This document shows, piece by piece, positions 18,671 through 53,727 of a stretch of 64,000 nt of DNA. A program made the translations under genes and the position numbers. The notes beneath the pieces are model-generated. The model did no database searches. It worked only from the letters and a program-made list of their open reading frames with translations, and had not been told where the DNA came from. Each line of letters opens with the position of its first letter. Within the stretch, counting starts at the first letter, position 1. The stretch lies in assembly GCA_038065555.1 (NCBI GenBank), contig JBBTQS010000001.1:128741-192740 (forward strand), written 5' to 3'. The stretch is from Patescibacteria group bacterium. GTDB lineage: Bacteria; Patescibacteriota; Patescibacteriia; Magasanikbacterales; JBBTQS01.

Positions 18671-18749
18671 TCTTGTTCTAGTGCAATGATCATGGTAGAG
18701 TAGCCCCGATCAGGGAAGGGCTGATTTGTGATAGTTTTTCTTGAATTCT

Positions 18750-21452
18750 ATGATGAAATTTCTCTCAACATTCTTTGGTGATGCGAATGAACGGACCGTG
18801 CGCGAGTTACGGCAGGTTGCTGAGTTAGTGAATGCGCAAGAAGCAGTGATTTCGCCGCTTTCTGATGAGGCTCTGCGCGCAAAGACAGTAGAGCTACGTG
18901 AGCGCCATGCTGCAGGAGCGTCACTCGACGATCTGTTGCCAGAGGCGTTTGCTGTGGTGCGCGAAGCTGCACGTCGCGTGTTAGGGCAGCGTCATTACGA
19001 TGTTCAGCTCATGGGTGGTGTTGTTCTCCATCGCGGTCAAATTGCGGAAATGCGTACCGGTGAAGGTAAGACGCTTACTTCCACACTTCCAGTGTATCTC
19101 AATGCGATTGCTGGTAATGGAGTGCACGTGGTGACCGTGAACGACTATCTCGCGCGTCGCGACGCGGTGTGGATGGGACGCGTGTTCAAATTCTTGGGCA
19201 TGTCTGTTGGTATTATCCAGAACCTGCAGGTGAGTTATGTTTTTGATCCGGAATTTGCTGGAACCAATCCTGAAGATGCTGGATTGCGTCCATCGACGCG
19301 CCAGGAATCGTATCAGTGCGATATCACGTACGGAACGAACAACGAATTTGGTTTTGATTATTTGCGTGACAACATGGTGCAGGATTCGGCGCACATGGTG
19401 CAGCGACCGTTTTCTTTTGCCATCGTGGATGAGCTCGATTCGATTCTCATCGATGAAGCGCGTACACCGCTGATTATTTCTGCACCTGCGGCAGATGCAA
19501 GTGATGAGTATTACAAGTATGCAGCGCTTGCAAGCAAGCTCGTGCCTGAAGAAGATTTCAAGGTAGACGAGAAGTTGCGTGCTGCGACACTCACCGATGG
19601 TGGTATTGCGAAGATGGAGCAGTGGTTGGGCATTGAGAACCTCTATGCAGACGGGAGTACTCGTGCTGCACACTTTGCAGAATCAGCAGTGAAGGCGCGT
19701 GCGCTCTTCCATCGAGACAAGGAATATGTGGTGCGTGAAGGCGAGATTGTCATTGTCGACGAGTTCACTGGACGCATGATGTTCGGACGTCGCTACAATC
19801 AGGGTCTGCACCAAGCGATCGAAGCAAAGGAAGGTGTGAAGATTCAGCAGGAGAGTCAGACGCTCGGAACCGTGACGTTCCAGAATTATTTCCGTCTCTA
19901 TCCGAAGCTCGGTGGTATGACTGGTACTGCCATGACCGAGGCAGAAGAGTTCCACAAAATTTACAAGCTCGAAGTTGTAGTGATTCCAACGCATCGCGAC
20001 AACATTCGTGTGGACCATCAGGACCTGATTTACAAGACAGAAGAGGGCAAGATTCGCGCGGTTATTGCTGATGTGAAGGCGCGCCACGAGAAGGGACAGC
20101 CCGTGCTCATTGGTACCATCTCCATTGAGAAGAACGAGCTTCTCTCACTGCTTCTGGAGCAGCAAGGAGTGCCGCACGAAATGTTGAATGCCAAGAACCA
20201 CCAGCGAGAAGCAGAAATCATTGCACAAGCTGGACGTCGTGGTGCTGTGACGCTTGCAACGAACATGGCTGGGCGTGGTGTGGACATTATCCTCGGTGGT
20301 AATCCACCAGACGTTGAGGAAGCGCGCAAGGTGCGTGAACTCGGCGGTCTCTATGTCATCGGTACAGAGCGTCATGAATCACGCCGTATCGACAACCAGC
20401 TGCGTGGACGCGCAGGTCGCCAGGGTGATCCTGGTGAGACACAATTTTACGTTTCTACCGAAGACGATCTCATGCGCATTTTTGCAGGAGATCGCATGAA
20501 GACAATGATGGAGCGATTGAAACTCGATGAGGATACGCCGATTTCGCATCCGTTCATCTCTAAGGCGCTCGAGAACGCGCAGAAAAAGGTCGAAGGGAAT
20601 AACTTCGACACGCGTAAGCATTTGTTGGATTACGATGATGTGCTCAACAAGCATCGCGAAGTGTTCTATCGCCGTCGTCGCGAGGTTCTTGTTGCTGCGC
20701 AGGCTGAAGTTGGAGATGGTTCACTCGATGCATTAGTGCAGGATATGATGCGTGAGGAAGTGCGAGTAACGGTGGAGGAGTATACCCAGAGTGAGAACGC
20801 GTCGCAGTGGAATCGCGAGTCACTTGTAGCAGCATTACAACTCCTCGAACCATCAGCAGATGGCATTGTTGCTACTGCATGGGATGATCCAGCACTGAGC
20901 CCCGAAGCGAGCCGCGAACAAATCATCACGCAATTGCAGGAGCGATTGTTGTCTCGTCATGCTGAGCTCATCGCATCGATGGAACCTCAGGTTGCCCGCG
21001 ACATGGAGCGCTCTATTATGTTGCGCGCCATGGACGCATTGTGGATCGAACATCTTGAGGCTGTAGATCAGTTGCGTACAGGTATTGGTTTGCAAGGATA
21101 TGGTCAGCGTGATCCACTCGTGGAGTATCGCCGTGAGACGCATCGTCTCTTCACCATGCTCATGACGCTCATTCGTCGTGATAGTGTCCTTGCGCTCGCA
21201 CAAGTTCGCGGTGCAGTGCAGTCCTACAATGGAATGCTCGCAGCGCGCCAAGTGCAACTCTCTGGTGCAGCAAAGACCATGCAAGAGACCGCTGCAACGT
21301 CAACCGACGGTCAGCTGATGGAGTCCACACTTGGACAGGCTGCCGTTGCCGTATCCTCACTTTCGCCCGTTGAATCAGGCGACAAGGTGGGACGCAATGA
21401 GCCATGTCACTGCGGCTCAGGCAAGAAGTTCAAGAAGTGTCATGGTGCGTAA
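18750..21452 (+). CDS. secA: Preprotein translocase ATPase SecA.
   Basis: DEAD-like motor motifs (MRTGEGKT, IVDEVDSILIDEA) and C-terminal zinc finger CHCGSGKKFKKCHG. TTG at 18741 or ATG at 18750. Confidence 0.95.
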   Translation: MMKFLSTFFGDANERTVRELRQVAELVNAQEAVISPLSDEALRAKTVELRERHAAGASLDDLLPEAFAVVREAARRVLGQRHYDVQLMGGVVLHRGQIAEMRTGEGKTLTSTLPVYLNAIAGNGVHVVTVNDYLARRDAVWMGRVFKFLGMSVGIIQNLQVSYVFDPEFAGTNPEDAGLRPSTRQESYQCDITYGTNNEFGFDYLRDNMVQDSAHMVQRPFSFAIVDELDSILIDEARTPLIISAPAADASDEYYKYAALASKLVPEEDFKVDEKLRAATLTDGGIAKMEQWLGIENLYADGSTRAAHFAESAVKARALFHRDKEYVVREGEIVIVDEFTGRMMFGRRYNQGLHQAIEAKEGVKIQQESQTLGTVTFQNYFRLYPKLGGMTGTAMTEAEEFHKIYKLEVVVIPTHRDNIRVDHQDLIYKTEEGKIRAVIADVKARHEKGQPVLIGTISIEKNELLSLLLEQQGVPHEMLNAKNHQREAEIIAQAGRRGAVTLATNMAGRGVDIILGGNPPDVEEARKVRELGGLYVIGTERHESRRIDNQLRGRAGRQGDPGETQFYVSTEDDLMRIFAGDRMKTMMERLKLDEDTPISHPFISKALENAQKKVEGNNFDTRKHLLDYDDVLNKHREVFYRRRREVLVAAQAEVGDGSLDALVQDMMREEVRVTVEEYTQSENASQWNRESLVAALQLLEPSADGIVATAWDDPALSPEASREQIITQLQERLLSRHAELIASMEPQVARDMERSIMLRAMDALWIEHLEAVDQLRTGIGLQGYGQRDPLVEYRRETHRLFTMLMTLIRRDSVLALAQVRGAVQSYNGMLAARQVQLSGAAKTMQETAATSTDGQLMESTLGQAAVAVSSLSPVESGDKVGRNEPCHCGSGKKFKKCHGA

Positions 21453-21720
21453 AAATGAAAAAGCTCGGGACTCGCACAGCGGTTAGGCTGATTGTGTCCC
21501 GAGCTCCAGATCAGTTAGGTAGGTCGGATCGTCAATCCGGAGTCGTCACCCGTTTCGCTTGGCGCCGCGTGTGCTGGTATGCTGCGGTGTGCCATCTTTT
21601 TTCAGAAGGGTTCGCGACTGTGCGCATTGCGAAATGCCAATAAACTGATCTGGAGCGAGTCTAGCACAACACGTCATTTTTGTCAAGTAGGCAATAGACA
21701 CTACGAAATTGATCTCAAAT

Positions 21721-22290
21721 ATGCATATTATTCTCGGTTCTTCCTCAGCATCTCGTCAGCAGGTGATGCGTGAGCTGGGGTTGCCATTTACGATTGTTAC
21801 GCCTGACATCGATGAGAAGTCGATTCGATTTGATGATCCAGAGACGCTCACGTTGGCTATTGCCAATGCGAAGGCTGATGCGGTGGCCGACAAGCTCACG
21901 GAGTCGGGGATCGTCATTGCGTCAGATCACGTGGAAGTCTGCGATGGAGTGATCTATGAAAAGCCTTCAAGTGAACAAGAAATTCGCGAGCTGTATAAGC
22001 ACTTCAGCAATCGTGAGCTCGTGGGGTACTCAGCAGTCGTGGTACTCAACACTGCGACTGGGAAGCGCGCGCAAGGTATCGAGCGTGCATCATTCATGTA
22101 TCGCGAAATTCCCGATGCAGTGCTCACGCAGTACATTGCAGAAGGGGATCCGTGGAATGCCGCGGGTGCTATTCGCGTGCAGAACGAGTTGCTCCTTCCG
22201 TATTTGGAATATTTGCACGGTGGAGTTGATGTGATTATGGGGTTGCCCAAAGCATTGACACTTCGTCTCGTCGAAGAAGTGCAGAACTAG
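21721..22290 (+). CDS. maf: Maf-like nucleoside triphosphate pyrophosphatase (septum formation protein Maf).
   Basis: MHIILGSSSASRQQVMRELGL N-terminus characteristic of Maf/Ham1-like. Confidence 0.85.
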   Translation: MHIILGSSSASRQQVMRELGLPFTIVTPDIDEKSIRFDDPETLTLAIANAKADAVADKLTESGIVIASDHVEVCDGVIYEKPSSEQEIRELYKHFSNRELVGYSAVVVLNTATGKRAQGIERASFMYREIPDAVLTQYIAEGDPWNAAGAIRVQNELLLPYLEYLHGGVDVIMGLPKALTLRLVEEVQN

Positions 22291-22357
22291 GTGACTCGTG
22301 TTATCCACTTGTACTTTTTTGGTTCTTCAGCGTACAATACGGCCGTAATTTCAGCCT

Positions 22358-24397
22358 ATGCTTCAGATTCAAGATACACCTGAGAAACGTGCGCAATTGC
22401 GTACGAAGTTCTATGTCCTCGTGATTGCATGTATTGCGCTCGTGCTCTTCGTAGCGCCAGGTGCGTACAACCGGCTTTCGAGCTGGGTCAACAGCAAGAC
22501 CAACGTCAGTATTGGTCAATTGCACTTCGATCCATTCCGTCTCGGACTGGATCTGCAAGGTGGTGCACATTTGGTGTACGAAGTGGACACACGTCCAGTT
22601 CCAGCAGATGAAAATGTTGATGACGCAGTGGAAGGTGTACGCAATGTCGTGAATCGTCGTGTAAATGCATTTGGCGTAGGCGAACCAATTATTCAGACCA
22701 ACAAGAGCGGGGATACCCATCGCATTATTGTTGAATTGCCAGGTGTCTCTGACATGAACGCCGCAATTAGCGCGATTGGCAAAACGCCGATTCTTGAGTT
22801 CAAAGAAGTGGGCGAAGCAACAACAACACCGCTCACCGCAGAGGAAAAGGCCGAAATCGTAACAAAGAATACAGAGTCTAAGGCAGTGATTACCAAGGCG
22901 CTCGATGCACTTCGCAAGGGTCGCAGCCTCGATGATGTAGCAAAAGAGTTTTCTCAATTGACAGCGGCAAAGGAAAAGGGTGCAGACATGGGGCTGATTG
23001 ACGATCAATATGATGACGCAAAATTGATCGCATGGCTCAAGGCAAATCGTCCAGGCACTACTTCTGGATTCCTCGAAACGGACAAAGGGTTCTACATTCT
23101 CAAGAATAACGAAACAACAACCGGCCCAATCAAGGTGAAGGTTCGTCACATCCTCATCTGTCATCAAGGCGCAGACCAGTGTGGATTAAATATTACTGAG
23201 GAAGAGGCGCTGCGTCAGGCGAGCGAATTGCGTGGAACGCTCACGCCGCAGAATTTCGCAGAACAGGCGACGCTACGCTCTACAGATGGTTCTGCAAGCC
23301 AGGGTGGTGCACTACCAGAGTTCGGACGTAATGAAATGATTCCTGTTTTTCAGGACGCAGCATTTGCACTCAAGACAGGGGAGATTAGCCAGCCAGTGAA
23401 GTCACAGTATGGCTACCACATTATTTACAAGGAGAGTGAAGTGCGTGGAACGACCTTCAAGGTGAGTGGTGTCTATGCGCAGAAGTTCACAGAAGCAGAT
23501 TTCCAGGACGCGGCAAGTGAGTGGAAGAATACGGGACTTGGTGGCGCGCAACTTGTGCGATCTGCAGTGCAGTATGATCCTAATACCAACGCTCCTACCG
23601 TTGGACTTGAGTTCAGTGACGAAGGTGAGAAACTCTTCGCAGAGATTACTCGTCGCAACATTGGCAAGCCAATCGCTATTTTTCTCGATGGCGAAATCAT
23701 CAGTCAGCCTACGGTGAATACGGAGATTACGACGGGTGAAGCTGTGATTGAAGGTGATTTCACATTATCGCAGGCTCGTACGTTGGTTCGTGAGCTCAAT
23801 GCGGGTGCATTGCCACTTCCGGTGAAGTTGGTTTCACAACAAAAGGTAGATGCGAGTCTTGGATCTGAGTCACTCGACAAGAGTCTCATGGCAGCTCTCA
23901 TTGGGTTCGGGTTGGTGAGTCTCTTCGTGATTTTGTACTACCGACTCATGGGCGTGCTCGCGGTACTGGGATTGGGTGTGTACACGCTTATCGTTCTTGC
24001 ACTCTTCAAGATCGTTCCTGTCACCATGACCGCATCGGGTATTGCAGGATTTATCTTGTCACTTGGTACGGCGATTGATGCCAATATTCTGATCTTCGAG
24101 CGTATCAAGGAAGAGCGCCGATTGGGCAAGCGATTGCACGCAGCAATTGAAGAAGGATTTGTTCGCGCTTGGCCATCGATTCGTGATAGCAATGTTTCGA
24201 CGCTCATTACCTGTGTCATTCTCTTCTGGTTCGGAACGAGTATGGTGCGTGGATTTGCTCTGACGTTGTCCATCGGTGTTCTTGTTACCATGTTTACTGC
24301 AGTATTTGTGATCAGACTCTTCATTCGTCTGGTTGTACCACGTTTGGACGAACACACGAAGCTCGTGCTGGGAGCACCTGAGACCCCACGCGAATAA
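22358..24397 (+). CDS. secD: Protein translocase subunit SecD, with a ~190-aa parvulin/PpiC-type PPIase insertion in the periplasmic P1 domain.
   Basis: SecD N-terminal TM+P1 (LDLQGGAHLVYEVD), conserved IAIFLDGEIISQPTV and a 6-TM C-terminal domain. Residues ~175-362 carry parvulin motifs (VRHILI ... GGALPEFGRNEMIPVFQDAAFALKTGEIS ... YGYHIIYK) plus an upstream degenerate parvulin-like half. Confidence 0.9.
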   Translation: MLQIQDTPEKRAQLRTKFYVLVIACIALVLFVAPGAYNRLSSWVNSKTNVSIGQLHFDPFRLGLDLQGGAHLVYEVDTRPVPADENVDDAVEGVRNVVNRRVNAFGVGEPIIQTNKSGDTHRIIVELPGVSDMNAAISAIGKTPILEFKEVGEATTTPLTAEEKAEIVTKNTESKAVITKALDALRKGRSLDDVAKEFSQLTAAKEKGADMGLIDDQYDDAKLIAWLKANRPGTTSGFLETDKGFYILKNNETTTGPIKVKVRHILICHQGADQCGLNITEEEALRQASELRGTLTPQNFAEQATLRSTDGSASQGGALPEFGRNEMIPVFQDAAFALKTGEISQPVKSQYGYHIIYKESEVRGTTFKVSGVYAQKFTEADFQDAASEWKNTGLGGAQLVRSAVQYDPNTNAPTVGLEFSDEGEKLFAEITRRNIGKPIAIFLDGEIISQPTVNTEITTGEAVIEGDFTLSQARTLVRELNAGALPLPVKLVSQQKVDASLGSESLDKSLMAALIGFGLVSLFVILYYRLMGVLAVLGLGVYTLIVLALFKIVPVTMTASGIAGFILSLGTAIDANILIFERIKEERRLGKRLHAAIEEGFVRAWPSIRDSNVSTLITCVILFWFGTSMVRGFALTLSIGVLVTMFTAVFVIRLFIRLVVPRLDEHTKLVLGAPETPRE

Positions 24398-24407
24398 TTC
24401 CACCTCT

Positions 24408-25325
24408 ATGATCTCCATTGTTAAGACACGCAAAGTTTGGTACTCCGCAGCGGTGGTCTATTTGTTCATCGCGATCGCCGCAATCTTCTGGTACGGATTC
24501 AAGCCAGGACTCGACTTCACAGGTGGTGCATTGTTGGAAGTTGATTTCTCTCAGAACCGTCCGTCAACCTCCGTTGTGTACGAAGCACTCAAGCCAATGG
24601 ACCTCGGCACCATTGTTGCGCAGCCAGCAGACGAGCAGGCGATGCTCGTTCGTCTCCCGTTCCTCAGCGTTGAGCAGCATCAGGAAGTGTTGAATCGACT
24701 CGATGAGCTCAACGGTACTGCGCCAATTGTCGAGACACGCTACGAGACCATCGGACCATCGGTGAGCAGTGAGCTGAAATCCAAGTCTATCAGCGCTATT
24801 ATCCTCGTGATTCTCGGAATCATGGTGTACATCACTTGGACGTTCCGCAAAGTATCCAAGCCGATTCCGTCTTGGAACTACGGACTCATTGTCGTTGTCG
24901 CGCTGGTGCACGACGTGATTGTTCCAGCAGGCGTGATGGCTGTCCTTGGTCACTTCCTTGGGTATGAAATCGATACACTGTTCGTTGTTGCATTGTTGAC
25001 GATCCTTGCATTCTCTGTGAACGACACGATTGTGACGTTCGATCGCATTCGCGAAAATCTCGTACGCGCTCCACAACCTGATTTTGCAGACACTGTGGAT
25101 AACAGCATCAACGAGACAATCACGCGATCCCTCGCAACATCATTCGCGGTGCTACTCACCATGTTCGCCGTGTACTTCTTTGGTGGCGAAACTGTTGAGC
25201 ATTTCATGCTCATTATGATCGTTGGAATGATTGCGGGTACGTACTCTTCGATCTTCCTCGCGTCTCCGATGCTCGTAGATCTTGCACGTCGAATGGATGT
25301 GCACAAACTCGTACCAAAAAAATAA
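24408..25325 (+). CDS. secF: Protein translocase subunit SecF.
   Basis: SecF TM+P4 architecture. Starts 11 nt after the secD stop. Confidence 0.9.
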   Translation: MISIVKTRKVWYSAAVVYLFIAIAAIFWYGFKPGLDFTGGALLEVDFSQNRPSTSVVYEALKPMDLGTIVAQPADEQAMLVRLPFLSVEQHQEVLNRLDELNGTAPIVETRYETIGPSVSSELKSKSISAIILVILGIMVYITWTFRKVSKPIPSWNYGLIVVVALVHDVIVPAGVMAVLGHFLGYEIDTLFVVALLTILAFSVNDTIVTFDRIRENLVRAPQPDFADTVDNSINETITRSLATSFAVLLTMFAVYFFGGETVEHFMLIMIVGMIAGTYSSIFLASPMLVDLARRMDVHKLVPKK

Positions 25326-25328
25326 AAG

Positions 25329-25517
25329 GTGTGGTATACTTTGTCTCGTATGGAAGACAAAGTTTGGAGACATATCTACTCATTCGTCACTACGGTGATG
25401 TTCTTCGTGATCTTCACCGGCGCATATTACGCAGGTGCGCATAACTTCTGGTGGATGGGTGTGGTTTTTTTGCCGATCGCGTATCTCGGCGTGTTCAATT
25501 TCTTAGTACCGGATTAG
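25329..25517 (+). CDS. Small hypothetical membrane protein (two TM helices). First gene of the post-secF module.
   Basis: 62-aa ORF packed 4 nt after secF and ending 2 nt before the next gene. Hydrophobic stretches FVTTVMFFVIFTGAYY and WMGVVFLPIAYLGVF. Confidence 0.4.
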   Translation: MWYTLSRMEDKVWRHIYSFVTTVMFFVIFTGAYYAGAHNFWWMGVVFLPIAYLGVFNFLVPD

Positions 25518-25518
25518 C

Positions 25519-27027
25519 ATGTTCCTTCTCGAAGATTTTATCCTGACCATTAATAGCATTTTTGGTCAGCAAATCCATAGCGGATGGGAATTGTTTTTGT
25601 TCTTCTACGTTCATGGCGGGTGGATCATTCTTTTTATGTTCTTGTTTCGCGCCAGCCTCGAGATGTTCTACATCTACCGAGTTGGACGATTCATGGGCCA
25701 GAAGTTCCAATGGCATTTCATTGCCATCGACATTCCGAAGGAGAACGTGCAGACACCAGTTGCAGTAGAGAACATTTTTTCCCACCTTGCAGGTGCGCAC
25801 CAGACACGCGACTTGAAGGAAAAGTATTGGGATGGGCAGTGGCAGCAGTGGTATAGTTTTGAAATTGTAAGCATCGAAGGACACATCCAGTTCATTATCA
25901 TGCTGGAGCATTCGATGCGTGATGTTACTGAATCTGCGATTTATGCGCAGTATCCAGATGCTGAAATCACAGAGATTGAGGACTACGCAAAGGATTTCCC
26001 CAACACTTTCCCAGACAAGGAATACCAGTTGTGGGGGACCGAGTTCGAGCTCGTGAGCAGTCAGTATTTCCCAATCAAGACCTATTCGAGTTTTGAGGAC
26101 AAAATGTCCAAGGACGATCAGTTCAAGGATCCAATGGCTGCGATCCTCGAAACATTCACTCGTATTGGACGTGACGAGCAAGCGTGGTTACAGATCATCG
26201 TCTTCCCGATCGGACAATCATGGAAGGAAGAGGGGTTCAAGATGGCAAAGCAAATGTTGGGCAAGAGCGATCCACCGAAGCGCCATTGGTGGCACGATGT
26301 AGGCGAGTTCCCACTCTATATCCTCAAGCTCGCAGTCTACGGCATTGTAGGTGGTGAGGAAGTACCGAAGTTCGATAATGGGGAGAAGAAGAAGGACGAC
26401 GCCATGATGTTCGGTACATGGAATCTGACCCCGGGTGAGGTTCAGACCATCAAGGAAATGGAAGAGAAAGTATCGAAAATTGGTTACAACGTGAAGATCC
26501 GTGTGGTGTATATTGGTAAAAAAGAAGTCTTCGACAAATCTCGTATTGTGTACGGTATTGTGGGTGCAATGAAGCAGTTCACCCGTGAAGACAGCAACGC
26601 GCTCAAGCCATCATACAAACTTACTGGTACCTCGGCGCACTATATCTTCACTGATGCTCGTAAGAATGTACGAAGAACAAAGATGATCCGCGCGTACAAG
26701 TCGCGCAGTGCGTGGAGTGGTAAGTTGCCATTCGTGTTGAACGTTGAGGAGCTCGCGACCTTGTGGCATTTCCCAATCAAGTCTGTACGTGCGCCGCTTG
26801 TGCAGAAGACAACGAGCAAGCGTGGAGAAGCGCCAGTTGGCCTGCCTATGGTGTTTGAACGCAGAACACCACCGCAGCCCCAAGCTCCTGCAGCAAGTGT
26901 TCCTATGGTGATTCCTGATGAGGTAGCACATGATGTGCTCACCACTGCTGAAATCGATGGAGTACACGGTCAGAGTGCGAAGAATGCAAAGATGACAGAC
27001 GCGCCCGATAATTTGCCCTTTGTTTGA
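25519..27027 (+). CDS. Hypothetical membrane protein (N-terminal 2 TM, then ~430-aa soluble domain). Candidate membrane partner of the downstream coupling-type ATPase.
   Basis: N-terminal hydrophobic pair (WELFLFFYVHGGWIILFMFLF). No recognisable catalytic motifs. Conserved-looking C-terminal segment NVEELATLWHFPIKSVRAPLV. Confidence 0.6.
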   Translation: MFLLEDFILTINSIFGQQIHSGWELFLFFYVHGGWIILFMFLFRASLEMFYIYRVGRFMGQKFQWHFIAIDIPKENVQTPVAVENIFSHLAGAHQTRDLKEKYWDGQWQQWYSFEIVSIEGHIQFIIMLEHSMRDVTESAIYAQYPDAEITEIEDYAKDFPNTFPDKEYQLWGTEFELVSSQYFPIKTYSSFEDKMSKDDQFKDPMAAILETFTRIGRDEQAWLQIIVFPIGQSWKEEGFKMAKQMLGKSDPPKRHWWHDVGEFPLYILKLAVYGIVGGEEVPKFDNGEKKKDDAMMFGTWNLTPGEVQTIKEMEEKVSKIGYNVKIRVVYIGKKEVFDKSRIVYGIVGAMKQFTREDSNALKPSYKLTGTSAHYIFTDARKNVRRTKMIRAYKSRSAWSGKLPFVLNVEELATLWHFPIKSVRAPLVQKTTSKRGEAPVGLPMVFERRTPPQPQAPAASVPMVIPDEVAHDVLTTAEIDGVHGQSAKNAKMTDAPDNLPFV

Positions 27028-27033
27028 TATCCT

Positions 27034-28980
27034 ATGGAGGACCCAGCCCTTTCCATTTTCTCAAGACGTGATATCAACGTGTTTGCGCAGACGAGTTTTC
27101 GCAATCAGTTCCGCAAGTTCGGAATCAAGATCGATGACCGTCGCCGTCACATGTATGTGATCGGTAAAACAGGTATGGGTAAGACCACCCTGTTAGAGAA
27201 CATGGTGCTCGGCGACATCTATGCTGGTAACGGCGTAGGAATCGTTGACCCACACGGAGATTTCGCGGAGAAAATCATCAATTACATTCCAAGTAACCGC
27301 ATTAATGATGTGGTGTATTTCAATCCGTCGGACGTCGATTTTCCGATTGGTTTTAATATTCTCGAAGTGAAGGATCCTGCGCACCGACATTTGGTGGCGT
27401 CAGGTCTCATGAGTGTCTTCAAGAAGATTTGGATCGACATGTGGAGCGCACGCATGGAGTACATTCTCAATAATACGATTTTGTCACTTCTCGAGTATCC
27501 AGGATCGACGCTCTTGGGTATCAACCGATTGCTCGCAGACAAGGAGTACCGCAAGAAGGTAGTATCGGTGATCACAGATCCAGTTGTGAAGGCGTTTTGG
27601 ATTACAGAATTCGCGAAGTATAACGACAAGTATCAGCAAGAAGCCGTTGCTCCAATTCAGAACAAGATCGGTCAGTTCCTGTCCGCTTCTGTGATGCGTA
27701 ATATCGTTGCGCAGGTGAAGTCCACAATCGATATTCGTCAGATCATGGATGGTGAAAAGATTTTCATCATGAACTTGTCCAAGGGGCGTATTGGTGAGGA
27801 CTCATCGAGATTGCTCGGTGGAATGCTCATCACCAAGATTCAGCTTGCTGCCATGGAGCGTGTGGATATGCCAGAGGCAGAGCGTAAGGATTTCTTCCTG
27901 TACGTTGATGAATTCCAGAACTTCGCAACGGAATCATTTGCGAACATTCTTTCTGAGGCGCGCAAGTACCACTTGAGTCTCATCATGGCGCATCAGTACA
28001 TCAAGCAGCTCGATGAGCATGTGGCGGATGCGGTGTTTGGTAACGTTGGTACGATTGTGACATTCCGTGTAGGTGCTGAGGATGCAGAATTCATGGAGAA
28101 GGAGTTCGAGCCTGTGTTCACAGCCAATGATATTATCAATTTGCCGAAGTTCCATATCTACTTGAAGCTCATGATCAATGGTGTGGCGTCGCAGCCGTTT
28201 AGCGCCATGGGTATGCCGCCGATTGGTAATCCGACGAATAACCTGGAGAAGGTTGTCCGTATTTCTCGTGAGCGCTACGCACTGCCACGTGCAGAGATTG
28301 AGGACAAGATCATGCAGTGGAGTGGTATGGGAGATCTCGACTCTGAGGAAGCATTGTCCCAGATGGATGGTGGATCGAAGAAGCCCAAGAATAAGGAAGT
28401 GGATATTCCACAGGAACAGCGTCATCCGTATCAAGCACAGTGTTGGAAATGTTTGCGCATGACGGATGTGCCGTTCCCACCTGATGGGAAGCGTCCAACC
28501 TATTGTCGCGACTGTTATCCAGAGGCAATGCGTGAAAAGCAGGAAGGTAAGCCTGCCCCACCTCCACCACCATTTGCACTCGCATTGTTGAAGGAGAAGA
28601 AGGACGCAGACAATCGCAAGGGAGTCTCGCTCAAGGAATTGGAGCCTGCAACAGCACCCAAACCGCAGCAGACACCAACAGCAGTTGCAGCACCTCCTGT
28701 TGCGCCACTACCACAACGTCCTCCTGAGGAGCGCAGAGTTGAACCACGAAACGATGCACCACGTCCGAGATTGTCACTTGCAGTGACTCCACCAACAGAA
28801 GATGGTGAGCACAAGAAGCGACGCAAGCGGAAGCGCACAGGTGGAGGCGGTTCTTCGAGCGGCAATGGTCAGCATGACCAGCAGCGCCCACAAAATCAGC
28901 AACAGCAACCACCTCGTCCACGGTTACACTTGCCGGACTTGCCACCAGGCACTCCGACACAGCCTCCAGCGTCCCTCTAG
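27034..28980 (+). CDS. Soluble VirD4/TraD/TrwB (type IV coupling protein)-family P-loop ATPase with a C-terminal C4 zinc ribbon and a Pro/Gln-rich disordered tail.
   Basis: Walker A VIGKTGMGKTT (27163-27189) and Walker B FFLYVDEFQNF, then ARKYHLSLIMAHQYIKQLDEHVADAVFGNVGTIVTFRVG, matching the TraG/TrwB C-terminal ATPase signature. No N-terminal TM. CWKC...CRDC at 28438-28515, low-complexity tail to the end. Confidence 0.7.
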   Translation: MEDPALSIFSRRDINVFAQTSFRNQFRKFGIKIDDRRRHMYVIGKTGMGKTTLLENMVLGDIYAGNGVGIVDPHGDFAEKIINYIPSNRINDVVYFNPSDVDFPIGFNILEVKDPAHRHLVASGLMSVFKKIWIDMWSARMEYILNNTILSLLEYPGSTLLGINRLLADKEYRKKVVSVITDPVVKAFWITEFAKYNDKYQQEAVAPIQNKIGQFLSASVMRNIVAQVKSTIDIRQIMDGEKIFIMNLSKGRIGEDSSRLLGGMLITKIQLAAMERVDMPEAERKDFFLYVDEFQNFATESFANILSEARKYHLSLIMAHQYIKQLDEHVADAVFGNVGTIVTFRVGAEDAEFMEKEFEPVFTANDIINLPKFHIYLKLMINGVASQPFSAMGMPPIGNPTNNLEKVVRISRERYALPRAEIEDKIMQWSGMGDLDSEEALSQMDGGSKKPKNKEVDIPQEQRHPYQAQCWKCLRMTDVPFPPDGKRPTYCRDCYPEAMREKQEGKPAPPPPPFALALLKEKKDADNRKGVSLKELEPATAPKPQQTPTAVAAPPVAPLPQRPPEERRVEPRNDAPRPRLSLAVTPPTEDGEHKKRRKRKRTGGGGSSSGNGQHDQQRPQNQQQQPPRPRLHLPDLPPGTPTQPPASL

Positions 28981-29028
28981 GGCGCTGGTTGCTTTTTTGG
29001 TGCGTCCGCGGTATGTTGGGACGTCACT

Positions 29029-30099
29029 ATGCAAGAACAGCGCAAGAAAATTCTTGTTGGAATGAGCGGCGGCGTTGACTCCTCAGTCACAGCCGCACTC
29101 TTGGTGCGCGAAGGCTACGAAGTCATTGGTGGCTACATGCGCAATTGGTCTGATGGCAAGGAAGAGAATGGCGTATGTACCTGGAAAACAGACCGACGTG
29201 ATGCGCAACGTGTTGCTGCACACCTTGGCATTCCACTCATGACGTTTGATTTCGAAGCGCAGTACCGTGCGGAGGTCGTGCAATATCTCTACGACGAGTA
29301 CGCTGCTGGACGAACTCCGAATCCTGATGTGTTGTGCAATCGCCAGATCAAGTTTGGATATTTTTTGGATGCTGCAAAACGTCTCGGATGTGATGCTGTT
29401 GCAACGGGGCATTATGCTGGTGTGCATGTAGCCGATACGGTCGCGCACCTTTTGCGTGCGAAGGACGACAACAAGGATCAGACCTATTTTCTTCATCAGC
29501 TCAATCAGGAACAATTACGCCACGCGCTTTTTCCGCTGCAGCCGTATCTCAAGAGCGAGGTGCGTGATCTTGCGCGCGAGTTCGACTTGCCAACTGCAGA
29601 GCGCAAGGAGAGTATGGGAATTTGCTTTGTAGGTCGAGTACCTATCAAAGATTTTTTGCAGTCAAACGTCGCAGCAACTCCTGGTGACGTTGTTCTCGAA
29701 GATGGAACACGTATCGGGACACATGATGGATTGCAGTTCTTCACGATTGGTCAACGACATGGATTCACGCAGCCAGGCGGCGGCGAACCGTACTATGTTG
29801 CTGCAAAGAATTTGACGACGGGGCAATTGATTGTTGCACCACGAGAAAGCGAGCTTTTGCTCTCAAATAGCGTAGAGGTCTCGAAGATGCATTGGATCTC
29901 TAGCACTTCACCCGCACAATCGCTTCGTTGTCTTGCGCGTTTGCGTCATCGCGCGCCACTGGCGTCCTGCACTGTTGACCCGCACGAAGACGGGTCTGCA
30001 ACTGTGGTTTTTGATGAGCCACAGTGGGGCGCAGCGCCTGGACAGTTTTGTGTGTTGTACACTGAGCAGGAGTGTCTCGGTGGTGGCCCTATTAGATAG
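29029..30099 (+). CDS. mnmA: tRNA-specific 2-thiouridylase MnmA.
   Basis: PP-loop ILVGMSGGVDSSV and conserved Cys residues. 356 aa. Confidence 0.9.
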   Translation: MQEQRKKILVGMSGGVDSSVTAALLVREGYEVIGGYMRNWSDGKEENGVCTWKTDRRDAQRVAAHLGIPLMTFDFEAQYRAEVVQYLYDEYAAGRTPNPDVLCNRQIKFGYFLDAAKRLGCDAVATGHYAGVHVADTVAHLLRAKDDNKDQTYFLHQLNQEQLRHALFPLQPYLKSEVRDLAREFDLPTAERKESMGICFVGRVPIKDFLQSNVAATPGDVVLEDGTRIGTHDGLQFFTIGQRHGFTQPGGGEPYYVAAKNLTTGQLIVAPRESELLLSNSVEVSKMHWISSTSPAQSLRCLARLRHRAPLASCTVDPHEDGSATVVFDEPQWGAAPGQFCVLYTEQECLGGGPIR

Positions 30100-30172: not shown

Positions 30173-31972
30173 ATGACAGCACAAGAACTCGTCCAAAAAT
30201 ACATTCAGTTTTTTGTAGAACGCGGACATGCGGAGATCCCATCTGCACCCCTGATTCCAGAAAATGACCCAACTGTACTCTTCACGACCGCCGGGATGCA
30301 CCCACTGGTCCCTTTTTTGCTTGGCGAGCGGCATCCTGCTGGTACGCGTCTGGTGGACTTCCAGCGTTGTGTTCGCACGGGCGATATTGATGAAGTGGGG
30401 GATGCTACACACAACACATTCTTCACCATGCTCGGCAATTGGTCGCTTGGTGATTATTTCAAGAAAGAATCGATTACGTGGAGTTACCAGCTGCTCACAC
30501 AGGCATTTGGAATTGATCCGAAGAATCTCGCTGTGACGGTGTTCGAAGGCGATGCTGATGCGCCGCGTGACGAAGAATCTGCAGGGTATTGGCGTGAGCT
30601 CGGTGTTGCGGCTGAGCGCATCGCCTTTTTGCCCAAAGGTGATAACTGGTGGGGACCTGCTGGCGTGACAGGACCGTGCGGCCCAGACACCGAGATTTTC
30701 TTTTGGACTGGGGACGAGGAAGCGCCTGCGGTGTATGACCCGAAGGACAAACGTTGGGTGGAGATTTGGAACAACGTGTTCATGCAGTACAACAAACAAG
30801 CAGATGGTACGTTTGCAGTTCTTGCAAAACCAAATGTAGACACAGGGCTGGGCCTTGAGCGTACGCTTGCGGTTCTCAATGGCAAGAAATCTGGATATGA
30901 CACGGAATTGTTCAGTGGAATGCTCGGTGCTATCGCAGCAGCGAGTGGCAAAATGTATGGTGCTGATGACGTAACAACCTTCTCGATGCGTGTCATCGCA
31001 GATCATGTGCGCACAGGCATTATGATCATTGCGGACGGTATGGTACCGAGCAACAAGGATCAAGGGTACGTACTTCGCCGACTCATTCGTCGCGCAGTTC
31101 GACATGCGCGCAAGCTCGGTGTTGAGAACATCGAATCGCTCTTGCGCGCGCTCACTGATGCAGCAGTCGCATCATTGGGCATGCTGTACGCGCATCTCGA
31201 GCCACAGCGTGAGCACGTGGTGACTGTACTCCTTGCAGAAGCAAAGAAGTTCGAAGCCACGATTCAGAAAGGCCTCAAGGAAGTGCAGCACATCTGGGAA
31301 ACACGCAAAGAAGTAACGGCCAAGGATGCGTTCGATCTCTACCAGTCATATGGATTTCCACTCGAGTTAACTGAAGAAGTGGCTCGCGAGTATGGACAAG
31401 TCATTGATGCAGCAGCATTTCGTGCTTCATTTGCAGAGCATCAGACACTATCACGCGCTGGAGCAGAGAAGAAGTTCGCAGGTGGGCTTGCTGATCATTC
31501 AGCAGAGACAACGCGATTGCACACCGCAACGCACTTGTTGCACAAAGCACTCAAAAATATTCTAGGCGAAGAGGTCCAACAGAAGGGGAGTAATATCACC
31601 GCAGAGCGTTTGCGATTTGACTTCAACTATCCAACGAAGGTAACGGACGAGCAGCTCAAAGCGATTGAGGATATGGTCAATGAGCAAATTGCGAAGGAAT
31701 TGCCTGTTGGGTTCAAGGAGCTCACGCCAGAGGAAGCAAAGGCAAGCAATGCCATCGGGTATTTCGAGGACAAATACGCACAGCTCGGTGGCAAGCTCAA
31801 GGTCTATGCCGTGGGCGATGACGCACGTGGATACTACTCAAGTGAAATTTGTGGCGGACCACATGTAGCTAATACTGCCGAACTCAAGCATTTCCGTATC
31901 CAAAAGGAGGAAGCGGTTTCAGCGGGTATTCGTCGTATCAAGGCTACGGTTGATGCTAATGGACACGCATGA
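30173..31972 (+). CDS. alaS: Alanyl-tRNA synthetase, short form (~600 aa: catalytic, tRNA-recognition and editing domains, no C-Ala domain).
   Basis: AlaRS N-terminal motifs (FTTAGMHPLVPF, FTMLGNWSLGDYFK). Editing-domain HTATHLLH and CGGPH. Ends right after the editing domain. Confidence 0.85.
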   Translation: MTAQELVQKYIQFFVERGHAEIPSAPLIPENDPTVLFTTAGMHPLVPFLLGERHPAGTRLVDFQRCVRTGDIDEVGDATHNTFFTMLGNWSLGDYFKKESITWSYQLLTQAFGIDPKNLAVTVFEGDADAPRDEESAGYWRELGVAAERIAFLPKGDNWWGPAGVTGPCGPDTEIFFWTGDEEAPAVYDPKDKRWVEIWNNVFMQYNKQADGTFAVLAKPNVDTGLGLERTLAVLNGKKSGYDTELFSGMLGAIAAASGKMYGADDVTTFSMRVIADHVRTGIMIIADGMVPSNKDQGYVLRRLIRRAVRHARKLGVENIESLLRALTDAAVASLGMLYAHLEPQREHVVTVLLAEAKKFEATIQKGLKEVQHIWETRKEVTAKDAFDLYQSYGFPLELTEEVAREYGQVIDAAAFRASFAEHQTLSRAGAEKKFAGGLADHSAETTRLHTATHLLHKALKNILGEEVQQKGSNITAERLRFDFNYPTKVTDEQLKAIEDMVNEQIAKELPVGFKELTPEEAKASNAIGYFEDKYAQLGGKLKVYAVGDDARGYYSSEICGGPHVANTAELKHFRIQKEEAVSAGIRRIKATVDANGHA

Positions 31973-33657
31973 TGCGCCGTTGGTTGAGCCGCGTTCATCT
32001 CCCGATTTTCCTTCTGATTCTTGTTGCACTTTCTGCGCACGGGCAAATGCTCGGGCGCGGATTTGTGTCTGATGATTGGGATTGGTTGCATATCGCGGCA
32101 ACAGCGCAGTTCCCAGAGTATTTTGTTGGTAATTACGCAGGAGAGCATGCTGTTGGTGGATCGTATCGTCCTGTTGTGACGGTTGTGATGCAGATGCTGT
32201 ACGCACTGTTCGGGCTGCAGGCTATTTGGTACCACGCGCTTTCTCTGGTGTTGCTCGTGGTCACAGCTATTGGTATTGCACGACTGGTGCAGACTATATT
32301 TGCCTCTGTGAGACAGCAGACGTGGATTGCGTGGATGAGCGCGCTTTTGTTTGTGCTCATTCCAACACATGCAGAAGCAGTGTATTGGGTTGCAGGGCTT
32401 CCGGATATGATCGCAGCTGCGTGTATGGTCTGGTCCAGTGTGTGGATGGTGCGGTGGCTACGCTACAATTCGTGGCGTAGCGCTGTGGTTGCGGTGGTCC
32501 TCTGGATCATAGCGCTCGGTGCAAAGGAGAATGCGGTAGTGTTGCCGGGGATTTGGTTCGCGTGCACCGCAGTGATCGCGTCTCTTGAGTGGGATCGGTC
32601 AGCATATCGATCCCGTGTGTTGCCACTGTTGCGATGGTTTGGGGGGGCGATCGCAATCCTTGTTGCTTTTGTCCTATTGCGTCGCTACGCAGTTGGGAGT
32701 AGCACATTGGTATACAGCGTTGCGGCAGCACAACTCTCACTACACAGCGCAGCTATTTCGTTGTTGCACACGTTAGTTGCGCCTGTTGTTGGATGGCATG
32801 AGATTCGACATCAGATTGTTGCGTGGGTGTGGGAGTACCGTGTATGGGTTGTGAGTGTTGTCGGTGCACTCGGATTAGGTACAATAGGCTATGGCGTGCG
32901 CAGATATGGGCGCACCACAGGTGCTGCGTTGGCACTGTTGGCTGCATTCATGATCGCTGCAATCCCAAATACTGTTGTGACATACCACCCGGTCTTTGCA
33001 GAGGGGGAGCGATTTGCATATTTTCCATCGGTGTTCATCGCAGTACTCCTTGCGTGGGGTTGTAGTTGGCTGATTACGTTGCAGCAGCAGTTGGGACGTG
33101 CAGCAACGCTCATGCTCGCACTGAGTATGACAATTGCTATTCCTCATTATCATCGTGCATGGGATGAAGCAGACCGCGCACTCGCAACAGTGCAGCAGGA
33201 CCTCACGACCTACGCAGCGACGCACTCACGTCCACAAGCAGTACTGATTGGTCTTCCAGAATTCGCACACACTATCGCTCCAGTTCTGCGCAACGGATTG
33301 CCGCAGTGGTATGCGATGACACATGACCTTGCGCCTTCCCCCTATGGTCGGTTACCCTATTACACGCAGTGGGACGGTCGCAGTGCAATGACATGGGTTG
33401 CAGACACCAATGGGTGGAAGGCAACGTATGCCACAAGCACATCACTGTGGGGCCCAGCCACATACGCGGATAGTAACCACCTGGTAGAATTATGGGGGTA
33501 TAACTACGCATTGCAGCATGGCGGGAACTTCGTGAAGTTCGTCTATCGTCCTGATGACCCCCGTACGAAGAGCTATCGCAGTGAAATATCGCCACCGATT
33601 ATTGCGTGGAGCAAAGACGGGTTTATCCCCATGCCACAGGCCACGTCGCTAAAATAA
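31969..33657 (+). CDS. GT-C fold membrane glycosyltransferase (PMT/ArnT-like, GT39/GT83 type).
   Basis: ~12 predicted TM helices with an acidic first-loop motif (FVSDDWDW) typical of GT-C enzymes. ATGA overlap with the alaS stop. Confidence 0.5.
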
Positions 33658-44517: not shown

Positions 44518-45915
44518 TTATTTCTTGCCGATCGTGGTTGCATTGAGCTCAATAGGAACTCCAATTGGCGCTCCTAGGAGTGCCTGTTCATTCACGTACA
44601 GAATGTTTTCTTTCTTATATCCCAATCCTTGGAAGACCGCATCATTAGGAATGAGTCGACGGGTGCCGTCAGAGACAACGTAGGTGAAAGGAGACCCCTT
44701 CACAGAAATGAGTGTACCTTCGCGGAATGTATATGCCTTGTTGACCAGTGGGTATTCAGCGAGTGTTTTCATGTCTACGACGATAGGCTTCGCGTTCGGG
44801 AATTGTGCCTTCACAATATCCAAGTGTGCGATGGGTTGTCGCATGCCGTTCTCCACGTAGTAGTATGCGCCAGACTTCTTCTCCTTCATGACCGTTCCGA
44901 GAGGGTAGATTGAGGCGCTTGTAATAATGTTGCCCTGGTAGTAGTCGTCGAGTTCTGCGGTTGTGATGTCGATGACTTCGCCTGGATTGTAGCCAAGCTG
45001 ACGGAATACTTCCTTGGAAGGAATGTAGCGAATCGTGTCATCTTGGAGCAAGTACGTCATCCCATTCTCGATGCGCAAAATAGAGTAGTTAGCGAATTTG
45101 ATTGCAGGACCCTCCTCGAAGGATTGCAAATCTGCATCGCTGATTTCGATAATTTGCGATGGGTTGTATCGGCTCGTGAGTGCGGTGAGGGATGCAAATG
45201 GTCGGCGCATTCCTTTTTGGATGATGTACACCGTCTTGCTGCTCTTGGTCTTTACGAGCGAGCCATTGGGGTAGACACGTGTGAACCAGCGATTCCAAAT
45301 CTTCCACAAATTCGCATTGCCATTGATGTGCGGAGTATAGGTGTAGAGGAATCCTGTTGCGAAATTCTGTGGTGTAACTGGTGTGTTGCTAAAGGTATAT
45401 TGCTGTCCAACCTTCTTGAACGATGGGTGTGATTGGTGCTCGTACCACCAGCGCACAGATCCTGCTGCATTATCGATTTGTTTTGCGAATCCTTTGAATT
45501 TGCCGATGGCTGGATCGTCCATCGAGCAGGAATCGCACACAGCGTAGCCTGTTGCCCAGTCGAGCGCCTTTTGTGATGGGAATTGCTTCTCTACAAGGCT
45601 TTGCTCCTTTTGCAACAGAACGAGAAGATACCGTGGGTTGACGGTGTAGAGCTGTGCTGCGTTGTAGATAATGTCGCTGGCGCGCTGGAGTGAGTTGGTT
45701 GTGACATCAATGTCCTTGTACGTGCTCAGTCCACTGCGTCGTGATTCCAGGAATCCTTGAATCGTGTCACGCGACATGGATGTAGAATCGAACATCTCCG
45801 CATCACTAATAATGTGCGCTGGATTGAATTCAGCTGCTGTAGCAAGAAGTGGTTGTGCAACCAACATCCCTGCAAAAACAGCTGCAAAAATGGTTTTGGG
45901 TAAAGAAAATGGCAT
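44518..45915 (-). CDS. Secreted protein: signal peptide, N-terminal domain of unknown (possibly cell-wall-related) function, and four tandem ~55-aa repeats.
   Basis: Signal peptide MPFSLPKTIFAAVFAGMLVAQPLLATAAE. Repeats such as GTLISVKGSPFTYVVSDGTRRLIPNDAVFQGLGYKKENILYVNEQALLGAPIG recur 4 times. Confidence 0.6.
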   Translation of the reverse strand: MPFSLPKTIFAAVFAGMLVAQPLLATAAEFNPAHIISDAEMFDSTSMSRDTIQGFLESRRSGLSTYKDIDVTTNSLQRASDIIYNAAQLYTVNPRYLLVLLQKEQSLVEKQFPSQKALDWATGYAVCDSCSMDDPAIGKFKGFAKQIDNAAGSVRWWYEHQSHPSFKKVGQQYTFSNTPVTPQNFATGFLYTYTPHINGNANLWKIWNRWFTRVYPNGSLVKTKSSKTVYIIQKGMRRPFASLTALTSRYNPSQIIEISDADLQSFEEGPAIKFANYSILRIENGMTYLLQDDTIRYIPSKEVFRQLGYNPGEVIDITTAELDDYYQGNIITSASIYPLGTVMKEKKSGAYYYVENGMRQPIAHLDIVKAQFPNAKPIVVDMKTLAEYPLVNKAYTFREGTLISVKGSPFTYVVSDGTRRLIPNDAVFQGLGYKKENILYVNEQALLGAPIGVPIELNATTIGKK

Positions 45916-53580: not shown

Positions 53581-53727
53581 AGATGGATCGTCCTTAATGG
53601 AGTCAGTATACACTAATTGGAGGAGCAAAGAAACAGTTTTTGGAACTGCGTATTATTGTGTCGCACAATATATCTTATACGACACCACAGGATCGCACTT
53701 CAAAAACCACAGGTCTTACTTTACAGC

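Follow-up and report, generated by a model that had tools for sequence, protein, structure and literature searches.

A zinc module and a motif-bearing disordered tail on a coupling protein-like ATPase of Patescibacteria: a candidate C-terminal recruitment arm

The DNA analyzed here, a 64,000-nucleotide window of contig JBBTQS010000001.1 from a Patescibacteria group bacterium, encodes a 648-residue ATPase related to the type IV coupling proteins (T4CPs) of conjugation and type IV secretion systems (T4SSs). The ATPase core is followed by a small module with four cysteines and then by a long, largely disordered extension in which short conserved motifs alternate with variable spacers. The best explanation for this segment, which stands about an even chance of being correct, is that it is the C-terminal recruitment arm of a translocase ATPase that has no transmembrane domain (TMD) and works with the DUF8128 membrane protein encoded immediately upstream. 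Tethering of a nucleic acid or of a partner protein is the most plausible function. Sequence and model comparisons establish what the domains are, how they are conserved and selected, where predicted order gives way to disorder, that the motifs exceed chance, and that the gene is coupled to DUF8128; zinc binding, hexamer formation, the ligand and recruitment itself are inferred. Coordinates of the elements within the window are collected in Table 1.

The sequence CWKCLRMTDVPFPPDGKRPTYCRDCY is present in the open reading frame (ORF) at 27034..28980 (+), and C470, C473, C491 and C494 (codons 28441-43, 28450-52, 28504-06 and 28513-15) are the sole cysteines of the protein. A preliminary description of this region, made from the sequence alone, had proposed a CxxC-N18-CxxC motif; the four cysteines are borne out by profile hidden Markov models (HMMs), whereas the spacing between the two pairs is 17 residues and not 18. 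The range given for the motif and tail, 28438-28977, opens at the Gln codon before the first cysteine and closes with the last sense codon. Residues 463-497 score 38.1 bits against PF23477 (zf_Tbcl_2, ‘probable treble clef zinc finger’; cut-off 27) and 39.2 bits against TIGR04272 (‘CxxC-x17-CxxC domain’; cut-off 36). Both curated cut-offs are exceeded, and the module is thus a known, named domain rather than an ad hoc cysteine pattern; PF23477 is already present on homologous ATPases in precomputed Pfam annotation. Elsewhere in the 64-kb window, no frame contains another genuine CxxC-x15-19-CxxC. An AlphaFold2 model of the ATPase, built with a 61-sequence alignment, gives the module a predicted local distance difference test score (pLDDT) of 85-89, and places the first CxxC at the turn of a beta-hairpin (strands 466-469 and 476-479) and the second at the N-terminus of a helix (residues 495-503). 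The model and the Pfam name both point to a treble-clef-like fold, not a classical two-hairpin zinc ribbon, and on this prediction the label ‘zinc ribbon’ used previously is imprecise. Two small Methanosarcina mazei proteins of the same domain family bind zinc as determined by inductively coupled plasma mass spectrometry (PMC12704099), and the sequence of the ATPase module suggests that it does so as well.

Comparison with four close relatives from independent metagenome assemblies (L001-L004; 83-96% identical) indicates strong constraint on this module. In codon comparisons, the nonsynonymous rate (dN) of the module is 0-0.012 while the synonymous rate (dS) ranges from 1.2 to saturated. The residues C, C, D, R, C and C of the module are invariant, the D and R belonging to a PDxxRP loop. 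The dN/dS ratio is 0.006-0.024 for the ATPase core and 0.07-0.26 for the tail (residues 498-648), and every length difference in the tail is an in-frame indel. Within the tail, near-invariant islands (EGKPAPPPPPFALxLLKxKK, RKG[VI]SLxxL, KKRRKRKR and PRP[RK]LHLPDLPPGTPTxPPAS) are separated by sequence that changes, and the Pro/Gln/Gly/Ser stretches behave as poorly conserved spacers. Copy number of the module varies elsewhere in the family: two or three copies are found in the tails of some orthologs (P0121, P0124, P0125, L014, L019 and P0085), and in P0085 the first copy is degenerate (CxxD) and the second intact.

The model is well defined through residues 461-530 (pLDDT 71-89), including an amphipathic helix at 513-528 (71-84), and falls to pLDDT 31-39 over residues 531-648. 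Disorder had been proposed for a tail of ~150 residues; the disorder is supported, at a length of ~118 residues. The reported Pro/Gln/Arg-rich character of the tail is confirmed (P 20.5%, R 9.9%, A 9.3%, Q 8.6%, K 7.9%; I, Y, W and C are absent), as is the basic patch KKRRKRKR at residues 594-601 (28813-28836; charge +8). The GC content is 57% in the tail and 48% in the core. The biased DNA had been described as free of nucleotide tandem repeats, in agreement with an empty Tandem Repeats Finder output for 28300-29050.

Two samples of homologs were used to follow the segment across the family: the 120 best database hits, in which Magasanikbacteria-like proteins dominate, and a set of one-genome-per-species representatives. 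The zinc module is present in 27 of the 116 best hits with a tail of at least 100 residues (about a quarter), and in 62 of the 74 complete species-level proteins, two of which carry two copies. An approximate neighbor-joining tree of 169 cores, rooted at its midpoint and analyzed by Fitch parsimony, has a zinc-positive root and at least eight state changes, with most zinc-negative proteins falling into two pure clades of 51 and 42 members. The zinc-positive root suggests that the module was already present in the ancestor of the family and has since disappeared on a few occasions. A tail is found in all homologs, at lengths of 66 to 534 residues (534 in L019). The earlier concern that orthologs might lack the CxxC pairs or the tail, or that the reading frame might be broken, is thus answered by the occurrence of the module in 62 of 74 proteins, of a tail in all of them, and of the same frame in four assemblies.

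Tails cannot be aligned across the family, yet recurring elements keep the same order. These were compared with composition-preserving shuffles of the tails, which overstate independence since the homologs are related. An acidic start occurs in 104 of 116 tails versus 23 in shuffles. It is followed by the optional zinc module or modules and then by an [IVLA]SLxx[LAM] (hSLxxL) motif, found in 85 of 116 tails versus 2.1 in shuffles, and in 34 of the 74 species representatives. A run of at least six K/R residues, often with DGE before it and G/S after it, is present in 60 of 116 tails (0.9 in shuffles) and in 12 of 74 species representatives. Two endings recur among the species representatives: a C-terminal ...PG[EQ]x[IV]xF[DE] in 31 of 74 (0.28 in shuffles), and an alternative C-terminal helix, hNLxxhRxxh, in 11 of 74 (0 in shuffles). 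The clade of the query ends in its own conserved peptide, ...PRLHLPDLPPGTPTQPPASL, and RPRLHLPDLPPGTPTQPPASL sits where other lineages have ...PG[EQ]x[IV]xF[DE]. That such motifs persist where the surrounding sequence cannot be aligned points to selection acting on them. Compensation of a lost zinc module by a polybasic run was considered and rejected, as neither data set on its own shows an association; pooling gives an odds ratio of 0.37 (p = 0.0016), which is confounded by phylogeny and is not relied on.

The same zinc domain is found in many other proteins. A profile search with the module against 1.84 billion cluster representatives identifies 4,975 clusters at E <=0.001, and among the best 150 of these, 140 are small non-ATPases, mostly 90-350 residues long and most with at least two copies of the domain. 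These 140 proteins come from archaea (Thermoplasmatota) and Patescibacteria, are named only ‘CxxC-x17-CxxC domain-containing protein’, and have no enzymatic partner domain detectable with Pfam. Their inter-domain linkers are rich in R (9.6%), K (13.8%) and G (9.5%) and net positive in 93%, and RG/GR repeats occur in 78 of the 140. The D and R of the PDxxRP loop are invariant throughout, stand-alone proteins included. A zinc module combined with a basic disordered region therefore recurs in otherwise unrelated settings, archaeal as well as bacterial; together with the invariant D and R, this recurrence favors a polyanion of a generic kind, for example nucleic acid, as the ligand, and the zinc module or the basic patch of the ATPase may bind nucleic acid.

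Several features of the stand-alone proteins deserve mention in their own right. Thermoplasmatota and Patescibacteria representatives (P0122, P0126, P0128, P0131, P0139 and others) carry two to five domains with RGG/RGD-like repeats between them, and appear similar in sequence organization to nucleic acid-binding proteins that pair zinc knuckles with RGG regions. Many two-copy proteins end with a conserved N-x-KLD-x-I-x-x-x-L helix and a Lys-rich tail. Of the 150 zinc-domain proteins, 8 also contain a ‘CapR’ domain, for which a literature search returned no relevant paper.

The ATPase itself is T4CP-like. Walker A (GKTGMGKT, residues 44-51) and Walker B (FLYVDE, residues 288-293) motifs are present, and PF10412 (TrwB_AAD_bind) matches residues 31-351 with 53 bits versus a cut-off of 20.5; the DUF87/HerA and TraG-D_C Pfam models also match the core. 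A Foldseek search with the AlphaFold2 core model places TrwB on top (E 2.6e-10, TM(target) 0.60), with further matches to HerA, DotL, Cagbeta and the C-terminal domain of VirB4; the ATPase half scores higher for TrwB than for the VirB4 C-terminal domain. The model contains a helical block at about residues 115-225, the putative all-alpha domain. No hydrophobic 19-residue window occurs along the whole ATPase, and Walker A begins as early as residue 44, so the protein fits only the ‘T4CP lacking TMD’ subfamily (PMC7434980). Curated NCBIfam equivalog models for TraD, VirD4-like CD1115, TrbC and others all fall far below their cut-offs, the best being TIGR03743 with 43.8 bits versus 366. A hexameric assembly is likely for an ATPase of this kind.

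A database search returns more than 8000 homologs, every named one from Patescibacteria. The ATPase is carried by at least 599 species of Uhr-, Falkow-, Moran-, Nealson-, Portnoy-, Buchanan-, Wildermuth- and Kerfeldbacteria and others, and the core is 63-80% identical across these candidate phyla. A 2025 survey counted 5,713 VirD4-like T4CP homologues in 2,918 Patescibacteria genomes, 148 of them near virB4, and reported that the t4cp gene is non-essential in S. epibionticum; its authors write of the function of such genes that exaptation ‘cannot be ruled out’ (PMC12102498). The zinc module, tails and neighboring genes described here are not mentioned in that survey (PMC12102498). Two other roles for the ATPase were tried and rejected: for defense, PADLOC gives only generic HerA and mad8 P-loop matches, and for phage packaging, the match to a PHROG terminase is limited to the P-loop.

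The gene immediately upstream provides the probable partner. Its stop codon lies 6 nt before the ATG of the ATPase gene, and a DUF8128 homolog directly precedes the ATPase gene in 65 of 80 species loci, an arrangement read as co-transcription of the two genes. The DUF8128 assignment is taken from precomputed annotations of P0271, which is 100% identical, and of close homologs; a local copy of Pfam gives no DUF8128 match to the window protein itself. The protein has one strongly hydrophobic N-terminal helix (residues 24-45, its only hydrophobic window), and its AlphaFold2 model (mean pLDDT 80.7) shows a confidently folded domain followed by disordered residues 432-502. In the Protein Data Bank (PDB), the best Foldseek match to this model is TrwK/VirB4 of R388, which is weak (E 1.4e-4, TM ~0.3), and neither PDB chains nor NCBIfam models give a signal at the sequence level. 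That DUF8128 and the ATPase together represent a split VirB4-like protein is offered as a lead only.

Phage proteins provide a further link between the two genes. The family phrog_5156 (824 profile positions) resembles DUF8128 in its N-terminal part (E 2.4e-16) and the ATPase in its C-terminal part (E 6e-64). One example, gp156 of Bacillus phage G, is an 825-residue fusion whose C-terminal half is 29% identical to the ATPase and whose N-terminal half matches the DUF8128 profile with an hhalign probability of 96.8% (E 2.6e-10). Such a Rosetta-stone fusion is good evidence that the two proteins of the candidate phyla radiation (CPR) act as one unit, and DUF8128 is probably the membrane-anchoring partner, or ‘N-terminal half’, of the ATPase.

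Additional observations concern the partner and its phage relatives. The disordered tail of the DUF8128 protein (26815-27024) ends in a conserved PPxNLPF-like peptide in which P496 and P500 are nearly invariant, and a disordered tail with a conserved end peptide is therefore common to DUF8128 and the ATPase. Homologs of the ATPase half are also carried by the SPO1-like phages CP-51, JL, Shanette, CampHawk and SP82G, and in phage G the gp156 gene follows a second TraG/VirB4-type P-loop ATPase gene, gp155. At 15 of the 80 loci no DUF8128 precedes the ATPase, and in GCA_965231005.1 (L005/L006, on a 1.23-Mb contig) the ATPase gene comes after a thioredoxin/DsbA-like gene.

If the segment is a recruitment arm, six flexible arms would project from the hexameric ATPase ring. 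Each would consist of the acidic linker, the zinc module, the poly-proline stretch with its amphipathic helix, and the ~118 disordered residues, in which variable Pro/Gln/Gly/Ser spacers would hold VSLKEL, KKRRKRKR and the C-terminal peptide apart. It is plausible that the zinc module and the basic patch, with its charge of +8 in this lineage, capture polyanionic cargo, most likely nucleic acid, and that the short tail motifs dock partner proteins. By analogy with the TraD tail and TraM, and with the DotL tail and its adaptors, the arms may serve to increase the local concentration of substrate at the motor.

Several observations weigh against a recruitment arm of this kind. First, just 12 of 74 species representatives have the polybasic run, and two large clades have lost the zinc module while retaining the ATPase; neither, therefore, is indispensable to the core function. 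Second, the phage fusion proteins have no tail, which makes the tail specific to the Patescibacteria lineage. Third, the zinc domain is without a characterized function in any context, and a search of solved structures with the module profile finds no relative, only spurious C2H2-knuckle fragments. Fourth, no VirB4, relaxase or other T4SS domain is encoded in the 20 window ORFs of at least 400 residues that were scanned. The relatedness of the homologs behind the motif counts belongs here as well.

An unlikely but not negligible alternative is that the tail is regulatory or tethers the ATPase to the membrane. The polybasic run and the helix could bind anionic phospholipids, or the zinc module and linker could bend back onto the motor and autoinhibit it pending the arrival of a partner. 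The ATPase lacks a transmembrane segment of its own, its tail contains the amphipathic helix and the +8 K/R run, and the acidic linker lies beside basic elements in a way that could allow intramolecular electrostatic switching. There is also a precedent in the C-terminal tail of SecA, a flexible linker with a zinc-binding domain that autoinhibits (PMC6620043), and the gene lies in a secA-secDF neighborhood. However, a membrane anchor is already available in DUF8128, which is joined to the ATPase in phage fusions without any tail; most species representatives lack the polybasic run; and numerous small soluble proteins unconnected with membranes also contain the zinc domain.

It is improbable that the zinc module is purely a structural or oligomerization element, stabilizing for instance the hexamer or the contact with DUF8128, and that the remaining tail is low-complexity sequence added neutrally in particular lineages. 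The variation in the Pro/Gln/Gly/Ser stretches would be expected under such a scheme, as these differ in length and sequence even among relatives that are otherwise 83-96% identical and are unalignable family-wide; so would the wide range of tail lengths (66-534 residues) and the loss of the zinc module at least twice with retention of the ATPase. A neutral extension is difficult to reconcile with short motifs that recur from one candidate phylum to another 30-100 times more often than in shuffles, or with a tail dN/dS well under 1. The surface residues D and R of the PDxxRP loop are moreover invariant and common to unrelated stand-alone proteins, which suggests a common ligand rather than family-specific packing. 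Finally, an assembly or frameshift artifact, or a mis-called read-through into non-coding DNA, might be suspected from the biased composition (GC 57% versus 48%) and the spurious opposite-strand ORFs, and is effectively eliminated by the codon analysis, in which four independent assemblies share the frame, in-frame indels only and a conserved C-terminal peptide, and the dN/dS is 0.07-0.26; in addition, a terminator-like hairpin lies at the stop, and every homolog has a tail.

A more ambitious version of the recruitment arm explanation, and a rather doubtful one, is that DUF8128 and the ATPase form a T4SS-independent housekeeping nucleic acid translocase, split, VirB4/T4CP-like and near-universal in Patescibacteria, with the zinc treble-clef and basic tail as its cargo-capture arm. 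Were this so, the translocase might import or export DNA or RNA in an epibiotic lifestyle, or move chromosomal DNA at division, and the tail motifs would constitute a previously unrecognized recruitment code common to the radiation.

Table 1. Elements of the ATPase gene, its tail and the adjoining DUF8128 gene, in window coordinates (aa, residues).
Feature	Residues	Position	Strand	Basis
DUF8128 (PF26449) membrane protein, 502 aa		25519..27027	+	annotation of 100% identical protein, close homologs
T4CP-like ATPase gene, complete, 648 aa + stop (TrwB/VirD4/HerA superfamily, without TMD)		27034..28980	+	PF10412, Foldseek
ATPase core: nucleotide-binding domain and putative all-alpha domain, no transmembrane segment	1-432	27034..28329	+	AlphaFold2, motifs, dN/dS
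Acidic flexible linker, GDLDSEEALSQMDGG..., net charge -4	433-462	28330..28419	+	low pLDDT
Predicted CxxC-x17-CxxC zinc module	463-505	28420..28548	+	PF23477, TIGR04272, AlphaFold2
Poly-proline PAPPPPP, then predicted amphipathic helix FALALLKEKKDADNRK	506-530	28549..28623	+	AlphaFold2; near-identical in four close relatives
Motif VSLKELEP, a case of family motif [IVLA]SLxx[LAM]		28624..28647	+	conserved in close relatives
Variable Pro/Gln/Ala-rich spacer	539-589	28648..28800	+	pLDDT 31-39; in-frame indels, substitutions
DGEH, then polybasic run KKRRKRKR	590-601	28801..28836	+	identical in four close relatives
Variable Gly/Ser/Gln-rich spacer	602-627	28837..28914	+	indel-rich in close relatives; pLDDT <40
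Clade-specific conserved C-terminal peptide RPRLHLPDLPPGTPTQPPASL	628-648	28915..28977	+	near-invariant in four relatives despite variable flank
Terminator-like hairpin, 9-bp stem with 7 GC pairs, plus T-run, straddling the TAG stop		28966..28998	+	consensus scan only

The last four codons of the ATPase gene (PASL) form the 5’ arm of the terminator-like stem, and this hairpin likely marks the end of the operon. The surrounding window is a housekeeping chromosomal region with genes for a CCA-adding enzyme, PBP2, Mur ligases and SHMT, together with secA, secD, secF and mnmA; alaS, priA, clpB, aminoacyl-tRNA synthetase genes, mreB and ribosomal genes are also present. The gene order secA - (maf) - secD - secF - small ORF - DUF8128 - ATPase is conserved (18741-28980 in the window; L001, L004 and L007), and in ~36 of the 80 species representatives, which belong to different candidate phyla, SecF is encoded no more than 4 kb before the ATPase. 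The small hydrophobic ORF between secF and DUF8128 (25329-25517, +; 62 aa as listed and 55 aa in L001/L004) has no Pfam match and may be a further membrane component of the unit. Pfam likewise gives no match at E <=1e-5 for the ORFs of 562, 465 and 441 aa at 31969-33657 (+), 44518-45915 (-) and 52303-53628 (-); the 562-aa ORF is kept downstream of alaS in L001-L003, again without a Pfam match.

Among the genes of Patescibacteria, T4CP-like genes without a T4SS link rank with the most widely distributed and most strongly conserved. The zinc domain family, the ATPase superfamily and flexible, recruiting T4CP tails are already known, and the feature itself would not surprise a specialist. The literature searched does not describe an ancestral, strongly constrained zinc module in a pan-Patescibacteria, TMD-less and T4SS-unlinked ATPase, a motif grammar in its tail, or the coupling of this ATPase to DUF8128, their fusion in phages and the frequent adjacency to secDF. 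The zinc module, the motif-bearing arm, the TMD-less state and the coupling to DUF8128 provide testable handles on what the motor moves, so that the job of these orphan coupling-type ATPases becomes a directly testable question. They also add a large-protein context for the CxxC-x17-CxxC domain.

Like the T4CPs with recruitment tails (TraD with TraM; DotL with IcmSW/LvgA/DotN; VirD4 with its C-terminal domain), this ATPase has a TrwB-like nucleotide-binding domain, together with a putative all-alpha domain. The C-terminal domains of T4CPs are variable, acidic and used for substrate reception (PMC7434980), and the variable, flexible extension found here similarly opens acidic and closes with a conserved short peptide. 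The tail of F TraD is flexible and acidic, and its terminal Gly/aromatic/acidic peptide binds TraM (PMC7555446), while the DotL tail binds IcmSW (PMC3441705, PMC7251119). Many orthologs of this ATPase combine Gly, aromatic and acidic residues at their extreme C-terminus, in the manner of TraD (PMC7555446; PMC7434980). The preliminary description had set the segment apart from canonical VirD4/TraD proteins. This applies to the C4 zinc module and to the polybasic run present in some lineages, neither of which has been described for T4CPs, but not to the flexible recruiting extension, which is known in several of them. Further differences are the absence of the N-terminal TMD of typical T4CPs, a chromosomal housekeeping setting with no relaxase or VirB4 in the scanned ORFs of at least 400 residues, and, unlike plasmid T4CPs, a core that is conserved at 63-80% identity over whole candidate phyla.

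The T4CPs include a recognized subfamily whose members lack a TMD and are paired with a membrane protein (PMC7434980). As with pIP501 TraJ and its membrane protein TraI, a soluble T4CP-type ATPase here adjoins a presumed membrane anchor (PMC7434980). Unlike TraI, the ~500-residue DUF8128 partner has a large folded domain with a weak VirB4/TrwK resemblance and forms a single protein with the ATPase in Bacillus phages, and no conjugation genes lie nearby among the window ORFs of at least 400 residues. With the M. mazei and other TIGR04272/PF23477 proteins the ATPase shares the same HMM domain, identical cysteine spacing, a PFxPDxxRPxYC loop and basic low-complexity sequence; however, those small proteins usually carry two to five tandem copies, whereas a single copy is appended to the large ATPase here. 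The C-terminal tail of SecA similarly provides a motor ATPase with a tethered small Cys4 metal-binding domain that binds partners and modulates activity (PMC6620043). This resemblance is one of architecture only, as there is no sequence relationship and the SEC-C motif is CxCx8C[HC]. ClpX offers a comparable architecture, in which an N-terminal C4 zinc-binding domain serves as a partner- and adaptor-binding module on a motor ATPase.

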